Notes: generated by a model from the sequence alone, not told the origin. A stretch of 51,755 bases of DNA from Parcubacteria group bacterium (GCA_028286945.1 JAQBQR010000028.1:1-51755); one strand, 5' to 3'; positions 37,405 through 44,032 are shown, counted from the stretch's first letter. Numbers and translations: made by a program.

Positions 37405-37475
37405 ATTCACTCACGAGTCGCATAAAATAATCAAGCCGGGCGAGATATTCCGGTTTGTGTACTACAATTACGTCC

Positions 37476-38834
37476 ATGCAAATCGACATTAAATCAGCAG
37501 TCAAAGAAGTCGAACACCTATTAGAGGCATGGCTTCCGTTAAGACTCCAATACGATAAAGTCCTTGGTGCCTCAATTGCAATTATTTATAAAGGGGAGAT
37601 TTTATACAAAAAGGGCTTTGGGTACGCTGACCTAGAAAAAAAGATTGAAACAGACGAAAATACGTTATATCGCGTCGGCTCTGTATCAAAGATATTTACC
37701 TCAGCTGCAATTTTTCAGCTCGCAGAACAAAAAGAGATTACTATCACTGATCCTGTTTCAAAGTACCTGCCTTGGTTTAAAGGAGAAAATGAAAAAGGGA
37801 AGTTAGAAGATATTACAATCGAGGAATTGCTTTCGCACATGTCTGGTATTTGGGGAAATGGTAATACCCCGCATTGGTTTACCGGTGAATTTCCAACAAC
37901 ACTAGAGCCTCTTCCGAGCGAAGCGTTGGTTTTTGAGCCATCTTCAGAATTCAAATATTCTAATTACGGCTTTGCTGTTTTGGGTGAACTCATTGCCACG
38001 GTAACTGGTTTACCGTATGAAAAGTATGTTCAGACAAACATTTTACATAAACTTGGAATGGCATCGACGTTTACCGATTACAAAGATGATATAGCAGGCA
38101 TTGCAAACGGACTTGGACGAGAAATACCAGGTCAGGAAAGAGAAAAATATGGGCATTACGCTACTAATGCATATGCGCCAGCGACTGGCTTTATTTCAAA
38201 TGTTGTTGATCTTGCTAAGTACATTGCCACCTTCCCGGTCAGTGCTTCAGAGGAGATTCTAAAAAATGAATCCAAGCAAAAAATGATTGAGGAACCTGAT
38301 ACTTACTCAAGAGGTACTGACAAATACTGTTTAGGGATTGAAAAATATGAGATCGATGGCAAAAAGATATACGGCCATGGCGGGGGGTTTAAGGGCTTTG
38401 TATCACAAGTTTCAATTGATGCTGATAATGAGTTGGGCGTGGTTGTCCTTACGAATTCCTCAAAAGCACCCGTATGGACATATACCCAAAGTATTTTCCA
38501 AGCGATATATGGCATTGCTGAAAATAGTTCTGATTACCTATCAGAAAATAAAATTGATACAAAAAGATATGAGGGAATCTATCGAAACTCTGGAGAAGAT
38601 AACGTCGTAGTTAGGATAAAGGACGTATTAATTTCTTTTGGAATAAATACGAGCTCGCCATTGTTTGGTAATAATAAGACAATTTTGCATCCGATATCTG
38701 AAGATGTATTTCTCCTAGAAGGCGGCGGCGGATTTGGCGCAAAGGGTGAAACGGTTACCTTTAGCGATATGAAAGATGGTTTATCTCAGAGAGCAACGTT
38801 TGCTGGCACCCCGATGATACGGGTTAATCAGTGA
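37476..38834 (+). CDS. Serine hydrolase, beta-lactamase/PBP-like (AmpC-related) family
   Basis: SVSK (SxxK), YSN, HGG motifs; AT-rich relative to its neighbours. Confidence 0.88.
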   Translation: MQIDIKSAVKEVEHLLEAWLPLRLQYDKVLGASIAIIYKGEILYKKGFGYADLEKKIETDENTLYRVGSVSKIFTSAAIFQLAEQKEITITDPVSKYLPWFKGENEKGKLEDITIEELLSHMSGIWGNGNTPHWFTGEFPTTLEPLPSEALVFEPSSEFKYSNYGFAVLGELIATVTGLPYEKYVQTNILHKLGMASTFTDYKDDIAGIANGLGREIPGQEREKYGHYATNAYAPATGFISNVVDLAKYIATFPVSASEEILKNESKQKMIEEPDTYSRGTDKYCLGIEKYEIDGKKIYGHGGGFKGFVSQVSIDADNELGVVVLTNSSKAPVWTYTQSIFQAIYGIAENSSDYLSENKIDTKRYEGIYRNSGEDNVVVRIKDVLISFGINTSSPLFGNNKTILHPISEDVFLLEGGGGFGAKGETVTFSDMKDGLSQRATFAGTPMIRVNQ

Positions 38835-38840
38835 TGGAAG

Positions 38841-39338
38841 ATGAAAGAAGATACCCCACAAGAACAGTCGTCAGTTCCCGTATCATTGCGACAAGCAACT
38901 AAGGATGATTTATCGTTTCTATTTACGGTTTTAACAGAAGCAATGAAGCCGGTGGTGAAGATACTTAATCCAGACAAGGTATTTGATCAGGAGGATGAGC
39001 GGAAGAAACATGAAGCGGAGTTTGTGCCTGAACAAATAGAAGTTATTCAATATGAGAACAAAGACGTGGGTCGCTTGCGAGTAGTTCGTACTGACGAATC
39101 TATCTATATTGGCGGCATTCAAATTCTTCCTGAATACCAAGGAAAGGGAATTGGTACGGCCATTTTCACCAACCTCATACAAGAGTCTGAACAGTCGGGA
39201 CTACCCATTGCCTTGAAAGTGCATGACGTCAACGAACAGGCACTTAATTTCTATAGAAATCTTGGCTTCATCCCTGGCGAAAAAGTAAAGGATCAGACCA
39301 TGATGCGATACGTCCCTGCTGGGAAAGGTTCTAAATAG
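38841..39338 (+). CDS. GNAT-family N-acetyltransferase
   Basis: ILPEYQGKGIGT, N..ALNFYRNLGF. Confidence 0.9.
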   Translation: MKEDTPQEQSSVPVSLRQATKDDLSFLFTVLTEAMKPVVKILNPDKVFDQEDERKKHEAEFVPEQIEVIQYENKDVGRLRVVRTDESIYIGGIQILPEYQGKGIGTAIFTNLIQESEQSGLPIALKVHDVNEQALNFYRNLGFIPGEKVKDQTMMRYVPAGKGSK

Positions 39339-39411: not shown

Positions 39412-40182
39412 TTAGTTATTGATGTCGATTGAACGACTTGCGAAGTTGTTTCCTTCATTTGATTCAACAACCTGATTGTTTGAATCAAGCGCGACGGTAA
39501 TGGTTCGGCTTACGCCTGAGTTACCACGGTCAAAGCCAAGGACGTAGTCAATGCTGTCGCCAGGTGCGAGTGACGGCTGATTTGCAGAGTTGTAGTTCTG
39601 CGCAGGAACCGTTGGAACGTTTACGTTGAAGTTCCAGCTTCCGGTGTAGTTTGTACCGGCGTTCGTAACGGTGAACTGGACTGCGCCAGACTTTCCATTA
39701 GGAACATTGTTTGAGGGAACGAACGTAGACGTATTTCCAGGAGAGTTCAGGTATCCCACGGCAGTGATGATCACCGCGAGGTCAGAAAGACCATGTGGTG
39801 CAACAGGAGTTGTGACGGTGGTCACCACGGTGGATGTCTGGCCCGTACCGGTTCCCGTCCCCGTACTGGTATGAACCGGGGTAGTGGTCGTTGCTGCAGT
39901 AACCGTGGTGGTTGCCGTAGTCGTAGCCACTATCGTTTCAAAGGGAAGGGTAGTCGTTGCCGTAACCACCTGGAGTGCAGGATCTTCGTTCTTCTTAAAG
40001 ATTGAAGAAAGTGAAACCGCAGCACCGCCAAAGCGTGATGCAATGCTTGGAACAAAGCGCGCACTGTAGATTGCAAGCCCAATACCAATAATAAGAAGCG
40101 CAATAAAGCCAACAATGGCAAGCGCATTTACAGCCGCACGGCGGCTGGGATCCCGGTTAATCGTCGTTGTCGTTATTTCCAT
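39412..40182 (-). CDS. Membrane-anchored protein with Thr-rich stalk and C-terminal CARDB domain
   Basis: N-terminal TM; SDLAV...FTVTNAG...LAPG...DSNNQVVESNEGNN. Confidence 0.8.
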   Translation of the reverse strand: MEITTTTINRDPSRRAAVNALAIVGFIALLIIGIGLAIYSARFVPSIASRFGGAAVSLSSIFKKNEDPALQVVTATTTLPFETIVATTTATTTVTAATTTTPVHTSTGTGTGTGQTSTVVTTVTTPVAPHGLSDLAVIITAVGYLNSPGNTSTFVPSNNVPNGKSGAVQFTVTNAGTNYTGSWNFNVNVPTVPAQNYNSANQPSLAPGDSIDYVLGFDRGNSGVSRTITVALDSNNQVVESNEGNNFASRSIDINN

Positions 40183-40306: not shown

Positions 40307-40987
40307 ATGACCACGAATTCGACCAGTGTACAGACCGCCGTCAAGCTTGTTACCGCAAGCCATAAGGCGTATACCCAGAAATGGGCCTTCCTGGGCCTCT
40401 TCGTGTTCGTTCTATTCATCTCAACCAGCGCGGCAGCAATCTTTGATGTGCTTCCTGATCCTGCGAAAACAGTGGCTGACGAAACAAGCGCACCGCTTGT
40501 CCTCGCACCAGTAACAGCGGTAGCTACTCCCGAGCTTCCAACGAAGATCGAGATCCCAGCCATCAGCCTTTCGCAGAAGATCGCAAACCCCAACACGACT
40601 GATGTGCAGCTTCTCGACAACGCACTTCTTGCTGGCCCGGTACGTTACCCAACTTCCGCCGAACTCGGCGTGAACGGTAACGTGATCATTTTCGGACACT
40701 CAAGCTACCTTCCGATTGTAAATAACCAGGCCTTCAAAGCCTTCGACGGAATTCAGAAGCTTAAGCAGGGAGATCGCATCACGGTCACCGGTGCTACACA
40801 TGTATTCGTATACAGCGTGGAGACCGTTGAAAAGAAGAGCGCCGCTACGGACGATTCGATTCCGCTTAGTGTTGAAGGAAGCAAGCTTACCCTTGCGACC
40901 TGTAACTCATTCGGAACTCATTCGGATCGTTTCGTAGTGACCGCTACGCTGGTTGAGACAGATGTACTTGTAAATACAGTGCAATAA
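40307..40987 (+). CDS. Sortase
   Basis: N-terminal TM; GNVIIFGHSS (His), L..GD.I.V, LTLATC (Cys), downstream R (SDRFVV). Confidence 0.9.
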   Translation: MTTNSTSVQTAVKLVTASHKAYTQKWAFLGLFVFVLFISTSAAAIFDVLPDPAKTVADETSAPLVLAPVTAVATPELPTKIEIPAISLSQKIANPNTTDVQLLDNALLAGPVRYPTSAELGVNGNVIIFGHSSYLPIVNNQAFKAFDGIQKLKQGDRITVTGATHVFVYSVETVEKKSAATDDSIPLSVEGSKLTLATCNSFGTHSDRFVVTATLVETDVLVNTVQ

Positions 40988-41107
40988 GTATTGTGGTAGG
41001 CTATCTGCCCCGGACATTCGTCCGAGATAGATAGCTCATTGCAATTCGGCATGAGTTGGTCTTAACAGCCGTCCCTTCAAGGGGCGCAAATAGAGGGAAG
41101 AACGTCA

Positions 41108-41992
41108 ATGAAATCGATCATTGCCGCCCTTGCGCTGCTCTTCGGGGTCGCGCTTGGGCAACCTGCGTCCGCGCAGTCCGTGGATCCGTGCAAACGTCCT
41201 GGCGTTTCCTGCTGGCACAATTTCGGGGCCGACCCCGCATATCACAGCAGGGCCGCCGCGATCGCCGATGCACCCCGTGTGTTTCGGCAAGCCGGATATT
41301 CCGAAAAGGTCATCAACGCTTTCAAGGCCGCGATGGCCAAGCCCGGCCGCCGCGTTCGTCTGGTGAATGGCGACATCCTGGCATTCATGCGCACGGGACC
41401 TTCGGGGATCATGCGCAACGTGCTGGTGGCTTTCCGCCAGCCGGTTGTCAACATGGAATTCGCCGCGCCTGCCGAGGAGTGGACCGTCGTCGTCGACGGC
41501 GAGACGCTCACGTCGGGCATTCCGGACATCTGCGACAACCTCTACATGAGGGTGCGGATTGTGGACGGTTGCGTTGAACTCACCTTCAATGCGAAAGTCC
41601 ACGGCAAGGTCCGGTGGGGCATCGGCTCGACCAATGGACCCATGCCTCCTGACGTTTGCAACGCGCAACATCAGGGTTCGGACGCCTGGTCGGCCTGGTA
41701 CGGCGAATGCGACGTGTGCATCCCCGCATACGGCTACATTCGCCGCGTGATGGGCGAGAACGCAACGGTGCCGCATCGGTACATGTATGACGTCACGCAG
41801 ACTCGACAGACTATTCGATTCTCGCGCGCAGTCTGGGCCAAGTTGGCTTATATCTGCCTCGAGGATGAGAATGGGGTCGGAACCTGCGGTGTCTACGTGC
41901 CGCCGAACGGCGTCGCGAGTGGTTGGAACAACCGCCATCACGTCGACATCGTCGACAGCTTCTGGCACTGGGGTGAAGATTGCCCTGAGTGA
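41108..41992 (+). CDS. Orphan secreted Cys-rich protein, GC-rich
   Basis: Signal peptide MKSIIAALALLFGVALGQPASA-Q; many Cys; purine-rich SD-like leader; own terminator. Confidence 0.72.
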   Translation: MKSIIAALALLFGVALGQPASAQSVDPCKRPGVSCWHNFGADPAYHSRAAAIADAPRVFRQAGYSEKVINAFKAAMAKPGRRVRLVNGDILAFMRTGPSGIMRNVLVAFRQPVVNMEFAAPAEEWTVVVDGETLTSGIPDICDNLYMRVRIVDGCVELTFNAKVHGKVRWGIGSTNGPMPPDVCNAQHQGSDAWSAWYGECDVCIPAYGYIRRVMGENATVPHRYMYDVTQTRQTIRFSRAVWAKLAYICLEDENGVGTCGVYVPPNGVASGWNNRHHVDIVDSFWHWGEDCPE

Positions 41993-42013
41993 CACGTCGT
42001 CACTCCCTCGCCT

Positions 42014-42055
42014 GTTAGGGGGCTCTGTTGCTTGCAACACCCTCCTAACTTTTTT
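42014..42055 (+). terminator. Intrinsic terminator after the orphan gene
   Basis: GTTAGGGGG...CCTCCTAAC followed by TTTTTT. Confidence 0.65.
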
Positions 42056-42118
42056 GTACGCCCGTAAGGGCAGGAGAACAATTTATTTATCTTTATTAAC
42101 GGTTAGAAAATTATCGAA

Positions 42119-44032
42119 ATGACTATGAAATCTATGAAAGATACAGTTACAAAAGTACAGGATCGTCCCATTGCAATGGGTATATTCGTCGTGCTTGCAG
42201 TTTTGGGTGTGGGTATTGCCATCGCTTTTGCGACTGGCATGACTTCTCCTACACTGGTTAAGGCGCAGGTTGTTGGTCCTCCATGTTGTACTCCACCACC
42301 GCCACCCCCCCCTCCTCCGCCCCCCCCACCGCCCCCACCACCGCCACCTCCGGTTGTTCCACCGATCCCACCGGTTACTCCTCCTGAACTTCCACCACCA
42401 CCACCAGAGACGCCACCAACTCCTCCAACTACACCTCCACCTCCTTCAGCAACCTGTGACTCACTCACCGCAAGCGCTGCGAGCATTAATCCTGGAGATG
42501 CGGTGACTCTGACCTGGCACACTACGAACGCAACTGCCTTTACGATTGATAATGGTGTTGGTTCCGTAACACCTGTTGATTCCGGAAACGTCGTTGTTCA
42601 TCCAACAGCGGACACCACCTATACCGGTACAGCTGCAGGAGCTTCAAACTCGGCAAGTTGTTCGGCACCGGTTCACATCATCCCAAAGACGACTACTACT
42701 CCTACCTGTAACTTCCTTCACGCAAGCGCGTCGACCATCAATTCTGGTGACGCCGTAACGCTCACGTGGAGCACCTCGAACGCAAGTTCAATCAGCATTG
42801 ATAACGGAGTAGGACCCGTAACGCCTGTTGATTCCGGAAACGTCGTTGTTCACCCAACGTCAAACACCACCTATACCGCAACGGTTCCTGGCGCACCTGC
42901 GAACTCAGCGTGTCAGGTTCCGGTTACGATCACGACGACCCATGTTCCAACCTGTGCTGAAACCAACTCATGCGGAGGAGGTGGAGGAGGGGGCGGTGGT
43001 GGAGGCGGCGGGGGCGGAGGAGGTGGTGGAGGCGGAAGCCCCAACATCGTTCTCAGCTCAAGCTCACGTCTTGCACCCCCACTTGGTAGCGTGTACCTCT
43101 CACAGATCCCGTACACCGGTCTTGACCTCGGTCCCGTTGGAACCGTTCTCTACTGGACAATGCTTGTGATCTGGAGTCTTGCAGCTGCATACCTCGTTCT
43201 CTTTGGATTCATTCCATTCATGCGTCGCCGCGCTGTAGCCTTTGGCTCAAACGTGAGCGAAGCACTTAACAACCAGCCATCACACACGGGGGCACACGCT
43301 ATGCCAGCAGCAAGTGTTGCCGCTTACTCAGCACCAGCTCCTGTCTACACGGCACCTGCGTATGCACCTGTTGCGCCGGCTCACACGCCAAACGTACATG
43401 AAACAGTTCACGCTGCAGCCGTAACGGCCGCAATGCCTGCACTCATGCCGCGTACCGCACCAGCACCTCGTATGGAAATGTCAGGTGACGGCTTCAAGAA
43501 GTTCGCTACATCTGACAGCCTCACCATCGATGACATCGTTAAGGGACTTTCACGTGAGTCAGGTATGCAGTTCACTGCAGAACCTACACACGCAGAAGCA
43601 CCCGTACAGCAGTCTGCACCTGCAGCTCCTGCACACGTTGAGGCACCGGTGTATGAAGCACCAGCTCCTCGTCCAGCTGCACCTGCAGCAAAGGTAGAGG
43701 AAGTACACCCTGAAGTAACAAACTTCATCGCCGCTATCCTTGAAGGTGAACGTGATGTGGTCTTCTCAACGATCCGTCACATTAATCAGGCAGGACACGA
43801 CGTTGAAGAGTTCGTCTCACACGCTATCCTCGCACTTGATGATGCCTACAAGGCCCGCATCGACGGAACACCTGTTCACGAAGATGTGAAGCGTGTAACG
43901 GATCACTGTGCAACGTCATTCCTCGAGCGCCTCGTCACGAGCCTTACAACGGCCGTTGACGGTAGCTACTCAATGGGAGTTACGGGCATCAAGCTTGCGC
44001 TTACGCGCGCACTTGCTGTGGCTCAGGGATAA
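42119..44032 (+). CDS. Putative sortase substrate: poly-Pro, two Ig-like repeats, poly-Gly, internal IPYTG-TM-RRR signal, cytoplasmic Ala/Pro-rich and helical domain
   Basis: Signal segment ending VKA-Q; Pro20 at 42293-42352; Gly21 at 42974-43036; IPYTG at 43106-43120; TM followed by RRR. Confidence 0.75.
   Translation: MTMKSMKDTVTKVQDRPIAMGIFVVLAVLGVGIAIAFATGMTSPTLVKAQVVGPPCCTPPPPPPPPPPPPPPPPPPPPVVPPIPPVTPPELPPPPPETPPTPPTTPPPPSATCDSLTASAASINPGDAVTLTWHTTNATAFTIDNGVGSVTPVDSGNVVVHPTADTTYTGTAAGASNSASCSAPVHIIPKTTTTPTCNFLHASASTINSGDAVTLTWSTSNASSISIDNGVGPVTPVDSGNVVVHPTSNTTYTATVPGAPANSACQVPVTITTTHVPTCAETNSCGGGGGGGGGGGGGGGGGGGGGSPNIVLSSSSRLAPPLGSVYLSQIPYTGLDLGPVGTVLYWTMLVIWSLAAAYLVLFGFIPFMRRRAVAFGSNVSEALNNQPSHTGAHAMPAASVAAYSAPAPVYTAPAYAPVAPAHTPNVHETVHAAAVTAAMPALMPRTAPAPRMEMSGDGFKKFATSDSLTIDDIVKGLSRESGMQFTAEPTHAEAPVQQSAPAAPAHVEAPVYEAPAPRPAAPAAKVEEVHPEVTNFIAAILEGERDVVFSTIRHINQAGHDVEEFVSHAILALDDAYKARIDGTPVHEDVKRVTDHCATSFLERLVTSLTTAVDGSYSMGVTGIKLALTRALAVAQG
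42450..42930 (+). repeat. Tandem intragenic repeat, 252-nt period (two 84-aa Ig-like units)
   Basis: Identical 29-mer CCTGTTGATTCCGGAAACGTCGTTGTTCA at 42572-42600 and 42824-42852. Confidence 0.85.

Follow-up and report, generated by a model that had tools for sequence, protein, structure and literature searches.

A sortase and a neighbouring candidate substrate with an internal putative sorting signal and a conserved cytoplasmic tail in a Parcubacteria group bacterium

We analysed a stretch of 51,755 nt from a Parcubacteria group bacterium (GCA_028286945.1, JAQBQR010000028.1), hereafter the window, in which all positions are counted. It belongs to a genome of 716 kb (0.72 Mb) with a completeness of 86%. 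Four genes of the window form a unit: they encode a CARDB protein, a sortase, a secreted Cys-rich protein and a 637-amino-acid (aa) candidate sortase substrate. The substrate carries its putative sorting signal internally, ahead of a long, conserved and presumably cytoplasmic tail. The organism is uncultured and is presumed to be an episymbiont, a label drawn only from the record titles of its relatives and from the 0.72-Mb genome. The sortase and the parts of the substrate are as follows.

40307-40987, plus strand: sortase, 226 aa, the sole one found in this genome, of no curated class (PF04203)
42119-44032, plus strand: candidate substrate, 637 aa, with internal putative sorting signal and cytoplasmic tail
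42167-42247, plus strand: N-terminal hydrophobic segment, aa 17-43, a signal peptide or signal anchor (hydropathy scan)
42293-42451, plus strand: proline-rich stalk, aa 59-111
42452-42931, plus strand: two 76-aa Cys-bounded repeats, aa 112-187 and 196-271 (50/76 residues identical)
42974-43036, plus strand: poly-glycine run of 21 Gly, aa 286-306
43091-43120, plus strand: putative sorting motif VYLSQIPYTG, aa 325-334 (IPYTG at 330-334), with the presumed cut at T333/G334; the segment spanning it is YLSQIPYTGLDLG
43145-43222, plus strand: membrane helix, aa ~343-368, with conserved Y345, W346, W352 and Y358 (AlphaFold2 helix; predicted local distance difference test score, pLDDT, 86-96)
43223-43231, plus strand: RRR, aa 369-371, putative stop-transfer residues, followed by 266 further residues
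43490-43558, plus strand: cytoplasmic motif GF..F...LTIDDIVKGLSRE, aa 458-480, a short helix within a disordered Ala/Pro linker
43706-44029, plus strand: C-terminal six-helix domain, aa 530-637, predicted to have the fold of clamp-loader domain III (collar), pLDDT ~95

The substrate open reading frame (ORF) starts 1132 bases past the sortase stop codon. A preliminary description of the locus had placed both reading frames, IPYTG at 330-334, RRR at 369-371, LTIDDIVKGL (aa 468-477) and the 266 residues after RRR, and all of these coordinates are correct. Classical sortase substrates carry LPxTG, a transmembrane helix and a basic tail at the extreme C-terminus. The candidate substrate has an xPxTG pentapeptide with a hydrophobic helix and basic residues right after it; instead of ending there, it continues for those 266 residues. 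The protein matched no Pfam family and, at E up to 0.1, no NCBIfam family, LPXTG-anchor models included. Its Cys-bounded repeat, probably a beta-sandwich to judge from the sequence, is present in homologs too, in varying copy number. Two metatranscriptome runs of the same study gave next to no coverage of the gene.

The sortase falls within Pfam family PF04203 (E 9.3e-20; 71.1 bits against a cut-off of 26.6) and gives the only match to that family in the 86%-complete assembly. Its catalytic residues, described earlier as intact, are H131, TLATC at 195-199 (C199) and R208, and all are invariant among 42 aligned sortases. The enzyme scores below every NCBIfam class cut-off: class E comes closest, with 47.4 bits against 160, and the models for classes C, D and F give 33.6, 29.5 and 26.1 bits, also below cut-off. 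The nearest solved structures, 4d70 (E 8.6e-9) and 5go5 (E 1.2e-6), are distant in sequence. We conclude that this is a predicted membrane-anchored sortase of no curated class.

Is the long reading frame genuine? The preliminary description had raised the concern that a stop codon shortly after RRR might have been missed. A Logan contig from run X1 spans 42354-44002 with no differences and no gaps; X1 is probably the source sample, so this represents a second assembly but not independent DNA. In the contigs of a relative from another study (run X2), 22 of 23 substitutions fall at third codon positions, on both sides of RRR, and the sole indel is of 3 bases. Furthermore, every one of 80 related loci has a single ORF with at least one of two family marker motifs, and most have both. 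One could still argue that a stop codon or frameshift was overlooked and that the tail is a separate gene, since poly-Pro and poly-Gly runs hamper assembly of the substrate gene and some relatives do carry split forms. Against the identical second assembly, the third-position pattern across RRR and the single ORFs of the related loci, we give this explanation almost no weight, and the concern can be dismissed. The effect of the runs on assembly is visible in its own right: the Logan contig skips the poly-Pro region (42288-42353), foreign contigs accumulate at the poly-Gly region (42951-43078), and 26 of the 80 related loci are cut within or shortly before the substrate gene.

The substrate family is conserved around the motif and throughout the tail. 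A search with aa 310-637 as the query retrieved 203 proteins at E up to 0.001 among 8000 candidates scored. The earlier reading depended on IPYTG being conserved, and xP[YH]TG is present in all 120 homologs listed. In these, P, T and G are invariant and Y is present in 119, the forms being IPYTG (67), VPYTG (27), MPYTG (13), LPYTG (6), TPYTG (6) and VPHTG (1). The motif is followed by 245-319 residues in the 114 homologs measured. In the motif region of a second alignment (A2), the invariant residues are Y, L, P, Y, T and G. Four blocks of conservation emerge from the alignments: Y-L-S-x-x-P-Y-T-G-L-(D/E)-L-G-P-x-G-T-x-x-Y-W; positions inside the membrane helix; the cytoplasmic segment G-F-x-x-F ... 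L-T-I-D-D-I-V-K-G-L-S-R, in which G, F, D, I, V and L are invariant; and most of the final 100 residues. The tail, with 42-77% identity, is conserved better than the ectodomain, whose size ranges between a few repeats and over 1,800 residues. When 1.84 billion proteins were searched with a profile built on the cytoplasmic part, 522 cluster representatives matched at E up to 0.001 and 399 at 1e-10. By their record titles, the relatives are metagenome-assembled genomes of Paceibacterota, Parcubacteria or Kaiserbacteria. On the strength of these alignments, we take the internal motif to be more than a chance occurrence.

The substrate gene and the sortase gene keep close company. Of the 80 related loci, 54 have a sortase ortholog on the same strand, upstream of the substrate gene, and these are all the informative ones; in the remaining 26, a contig end either truncates the substrate gene or is less than 900 bases away from it. 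The synteny with sortases that the preliminary description had named as a check is thus borne out. Within the taxonomic family of the window, the tail profile matched 241 of 259 genomes (183 of 188 of high quality), and the sortase profile matched 237 of 259 (179 of 188). Of these genomes, 227 have both genes, 14 have the tail without the sortase, 10 have the sortase without the tail, and 8 have neither; two of the negatives in these counts were inferred, not listed. All six single-contig genomes of the taxonomic family have both genes. Seven of 401 genomes sampled from the class matched the tail profile. Elsewhere in the order, each of the five other genomes with the family has an adjacent sortase of this clade (112-199 bits), and this clade is found in none of the 14 genomes of the order that do not have the family. 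Eleven of these 14 have no sortase domain by the Pfam model. The remaining three (G121, G341 and G356) carry a different sortase clade whose neighbours have classical LPNTG, FPTTG or LPRTG signals 31-34 residues ahead of the stop codon. Because this other clade is paired with other motifs, sortase clade and motif go together.

We also looked for other substrates in the window's own genome. A six-frame scan of 2601 ORFs for xPxT[GASN] followed by a helix gave no other plausible substrate and no classical C-terminal signal. The few other matches to motif plus helix, excluded as polytopic membrane proteins or spurious frames, were judged by reading the rows. A degenerate DNA pattern for S(Q/E)(I/V/M)PYTG matched 11 of the 401 class genomes, as compared with 5 for a reversed control, and is too unspecific for counting. 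Six of its matches are real cluster genes (in G000, G291, G325, G193, G374 and G145), and five lie in unrelated frames or in no ORF. A search with the classical signal of G374, described below, returned 9 candidates, none of which was scored.

Natural variants of the cluster separate its parts. G374, a genome of a different taxonomic family, has the best sortase match outside the order. The sortase is the first of four genes in a cluster, the others encoding a secreted protein, a 249-residue product and a CARDB protein. The 249-residue product has YLSQVPYTG, a helix and basic residues at its C-terminus, and its stop codon comes 30 residues past the motif. Beside this same sortase clade, also outside the order, G145 has FLSQVPYTG followed by 70 residues, and G028 has IPPTG followed by 32. 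In G073, from another family of the class, a gene adjoining the sortase (L112, 5103-6770, minus strand) encodes VPYTG, a helix and a 134-residue tail that does not match the tail profile. By eye, it looks similar to an additional helical stretch that the divergent members G021, G193 and G235 carry in their tails. Cytoplasmic extensions may follow PYTG signals more widely, and in more forms, than in this one family.

Nineteen genomes of the same genus gave only weak tail matches, and we read five of them (G502, G619, G435, G613 and G575). Two of them, G502 (closed) and G619, retain an intact sortase, and PYTG in their substrate is followed by 33-35 residues. Right downstream, a separate small frame with its own Met start encodes a helix of the family type, a diverged linker and G-F-x-x-F-Q-T-G-x-E-L-T-V-E-D-I-V-K-G-L-S-R, then a stop; (I/V)(D/E)DIVKGLSR is thus kept, and the collar-like domain is absent. 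The tails of G435, G613 and G575 are shortened. The other 14 genomes, known from match tables only, show a signal frame of 470-520 residues and a helix/motif frame of 105-157 residues. The split variants imply that the membrane-protein half is viable as a gene of its own.

The converse variants have no ectodomain. Five cluster representatives of this kind (P0186, P0188, P0195, P0196 and P0197) keep the helix and the full tail. The motif is degenerate in P0188 (ISYAG), P0196 (ATSTG) and P0186 (FPYSG). It is absent from P0195 and P0197, whose start is 44-47% identical (E 9e-11) to the N-terminal membrane segment of the window's CARDB protein, a fusion that hints at cooperation of the CARDB protein and the tail module in the membrane. 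Since in forms without an ectodomain the motif is degenerate or missing and the tail persists, the motif is retained when an ectodomain is there to be anchored, and the tail can exist by itself. A further representative, P0162, joins a UvrD-like helicase N-terminus to the end of the family helix and to the tail; it is most likely a chimeric contig or gene call.

Together, the synteny, the co-occurrence, the relatives with the same motif in classical form and the decay of the motif upon loss of the ectodomain strongly support a pairing of sortase and substrate in which IPYTG would be the sorting signal. Several considerations pull the other way. Cleavage is a prediction from comparative evidence. 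Gene order is shared with the relatives all the way from gyrB to thrS; hence, the synteny of the two genes may in part be simply inherited. Only one of the two genes was found in 24 of the 259 genomes, many of which are fragmented assemblies, and the genomes compared are close kin and not independent observations. The specificity of the sortase cannot be read from known enzymes because it fits no curated class. Lastly, LDLGP.GT..YW and the helix are nearly invariant, so that conservation runs well past a usual sorting signal; this segment has a sequence-specific role beyond the needs of sorting, and the reason for its conservation could lie outside the sortase.

The last point leads to a different explanation, that there is no cleavage: the protein would be a single- or two-pass membrane receptor or adhesin with PYTG as a juxtamembrane element, and the sortase would act elsewhere or dock. 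Besides the extended conservation, the internal position of the signal and the lack of a match to any curated LPXTG-anchor model are consistent with this. However, it would leave the sortase with no candidate substrate in the genome. It is also difficult to reconcile with the classical C-terminal form of the motif beside the same sortase clade in G374, G502 and G619, with decay of the motif once the ectodomain is lost, and with the different motifs that accompany a different sortase clade in the same order. We therefore consider an uncleaved receptor or adhesin rather unlikely. That the substrate is cleaved by the neighbouring, dedicated sortase is, judging from the comparative sequence evidence, the more probable outcome, if by no means a secure one.

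AlphaFold2, which we ran on 45 sequences, models the membrane region as a long helix (pLDDT 86-96). Next come a disordered part, in which LTIDDIVKGL forms a single short helix (model residues 161-168, low confidence), and a six-helix domain. When compared with solved structures using VIA, aa 530-637 matched domain III of E. coli gamma/tau with Z 14.1 (root-mean-square deviation 2.1 over 106 residues). The next matches were B. subtilis delta (Z 12.0), archaeal RFC (10.6), Rad24-RFC (10.0), delta' (9.9) and delta (8.8), followed by the T4 clamp loader (7.9), MgsA-type C-terminal domains (~7) and unrelated rows (~6). The top 12 rows are all C-terminal domains of the clamp-loader clade and cover the whole domain; VIA carries the caution that helical bundles may reach such Z values by chance. 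The top Foldseek rows belong to the same clade, with a best E of 1.2e-3. Sequence echoes are faint. With hhalign, the start of the domain aligned in register with DnaX at a probability of 10%, which is no proof of homology. The tail of the window protein has no Pfam match to PF12169 or PF08542, and sub-threshold matches occur in 7 of 43 tails (PF12169 in 4, best E 0.049; PF08542 in 3, best E 0.025). In Protein Atlas, clusters bearing PF12169 rank top at 0.86, below 0.9, and serve as a lead only. The modelled structures indicate that the tail domain has a clamp-loader collar fold. No AAA+ module or lid precedes it; a membrane helix and a disordered linker do.

In clamp loaders, domain III builds an oligomeric collar, and for this reason we infer a docking or oligomerising role for the tail. 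The idea that the tail replaces a missing domain III of DnaX was rejected, as a full DnaX (341-353 aa) is present in all five closed relatives. A clear dnaX was not found in the window's own 86%-complete assembly (contigs C1, C17 and C36), where the best dnaX_nterm match scored 32.9 bits; the gene probably lies in the unassembled part. In a search of the five closed relatives for holA, the best matches were the dnaX genes themselves, and the others were weak.

How might the substrate be processed? We propose that the N-terminal hydrophobic segment would carry the repeat-bearing ectodomain across the membrane, and that the second helix and RRR would stop transfer, so that aa 372-637 remain inside the cell. 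The membrane-anchored sortase would then cut at T333/G334 and transfer the ectodomain to a nucleophile, for which a peptidoglycan precursor is the likeliest candidate. What remains in the membrane would be a fragment of ~300 residues, starting at G334 and consisting of the helix, the disordered linker with the LTIDDIVKGLSR helix and the collar-like domain. This fragment could be a second product with a function of its own, probably in oligomerisation or docking. Export, stop transfer, topology, cleavage, acceptor, and the persistence and role of the tail are all inferred steps. Two genes for penicillin-binding protein transpeptidases and one MraY-family gene are present in the window's own genome.

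Should cleavage occur, the chance that the tail is a lasting and functional second product falls short of even. A competing possibility is that the substrate is cleaved but that the tail acts before cleavage only, by placing, retaining or pacing the precursor, and is then degraded. The union of tail and signal in one chain in most genomes is consistent with this, as are the 19 same-genus genomes in which the tail is shortened or lost and the sortase is kept; because of these, the tail cannot be essential for sorting. On the other hand, a transient role does not readily account for a tail that is conserved better than the ectodomain and has a confidently modelled domain (pLDDT ~95), for the survival of its helix-plus-motif part as a small ORF in the split variants, or for full tails in variants that have nothing to sort. 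We regard a tail destined only for degradation as unlikely.

The two-product design put forward in the preliminary description is sustained insofar as the two halves exist as separate genes in natural variants; its suggestion of a signalling role has found no support. In such a role, cleavage would be a switch: the freed tail would dock on the clamp loader or another cytoplasmic assembly and report anchoring or host contact. We consider this very improbable. If true, it would amount to sortase-built, cleavage-coupled, two-product signalling to replication or growth in an ultra-small and probably host-dependent bacterium.

The two other genes of the unit flank the sortase gene.

39412-40182, minus strand: CARDB protein, membrane-anchored, 256 aa, with a C-terminal CARDB domain (Pfam PF07705, 35.1 bits against a cut-off of 22.7)
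41108-41992, plus strand: middle protein, secreted, Cys-rich, 294 aa, encoded between the sortase and substrate genes

A CARDB homolog adjoins the sortase in 53 of the 80 related loci and is also present in the divergent clusters of G193, G235 and G374. The middle protein matches no Pfam or NCBIfam family. Its positional counterparts always lie between sortase and substrate, and 50 of 53 form one phmmer cluster. The family is evolving very fast, with a mean column identity of 13%, and C142 and C155 are invariant. The AlphaFold2 model is confident (pLDDT 84.7) and has no clear fold relative, the best structural match reaching Z 5.7. A profile of the family gave a weak match to the G374 counterpart (E 6e-6 in a tiny search).

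These neighbours raise the possibility that the ectodomain is joined to a protein and not to the wall, in a pilus-like manner. The acceptor could be either neighbour, Cys-rich or CARDB, or a second copy of the substrate. Even distant clusters keep the four genes together; weak structural matches to the C-terminal half of the middle protein include many Gram-positive pilin domains (Z 4.4-5.3); and the N-terminal segment of the CARDB protein is fused to the tail in P0195 and P0197. However, fold matches of this size are at noise level for beta-sandwiches. In addition, known pilus systems pair a polymerising sortase with a housekeeping sortase, whereas this genome has one sortase only. We thus find attachment to a protein improbable.

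Between gyrB and the cluster, positions 37455-39338 of the window encode a serine hydrolase of the beta-lactamase family (PF00144, 196.5 bits) together with an acetyltransferase of the GNAT type (PF00583). Homologs of these were found in none of the 80 related loci within the stretches fetched, and the local GC content is 0.444, below that of the flanks. This segment looks like an insertion specific to the window's own genome.

What is the significance of the arrangement? Both the definition of sortase signals and the software that predicts them place these signals at the C-terminus, and the family described here is a lineage-wide exception (241 of 259 genomes and 522 cluster representatives). 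Surface proteomes of the candidate phyla radiation (CPR) are therefore under-called, and this sortase clade gains YLSQxPYTG as a search motif. According to one report, more than half of CPR genomes carry a sortase family (PMC6744442). In the literature on sortases together with Parcubacteria or PYTG, we found no description of this arrangement, the supplement of that report lying outside the search. Moreover, the locus is compact and open to experiment: one precursor may yield an outside and an inside product, and the classical, split and ectodomain-less forms serve as natural controls. Paceibacteria offer few tractable handles, and one sortase with one substrate makes an attractive way into studies of their envelope and host contact.

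With respect to known systems, the nearest functional precedent found for the membrane fragment comes from Streptococcus gordonii, where, as reported in a paper citing that work (PMC11502775), the membrane-embedded C-peptide left by sortase A cleavage signals via a histidine kinase. The two cases share a membrane remainder of sortase cleavage with a function of its own, which here is proposed; they differ in that the C-peptide is short and hydrophobic, whereas the fragment here would have ~300 residues and a folded cytoplasmic domain, with no kinase implicated. The tail domain is similar to domain III of clamp-loader subunits (DnaX gamma/tau, delta, delta' and RFC) in fold and in weak sequence echoes. 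In contrast to those subunits, it has no AAA+ module or lid and would hang on a membrane helix via a disordered linker. The enzyme shares its domain and catalytic residues with class D/E sortases (4d70 and 5go5) but scores far below the NCBIfam class cut-offs. Like the housekeeping sortase of the classical scheme, it is a putative membrane-anchored Cys transpeptidase with a His/Cys/Arg triad. The signal is likewise similar to the classical LPXTG signal in its pentapeptide with invariant P, T and G, its hydrophobic helix and basic residues, and an acidic residue soon after G. It differs in its consensus, YLS(Q/E)(I/V/M/L/T)PYTG(L)(D/E)LG, in its internal position, with 245-319 conserved residues after it, in the sequence conservation of the helix and in the unclassified enzyme. 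The arrangement is thus the classical scheme with three departures: a different consensus motif, an unclassified enzyme and a large, conserved cytoplasmic extension.

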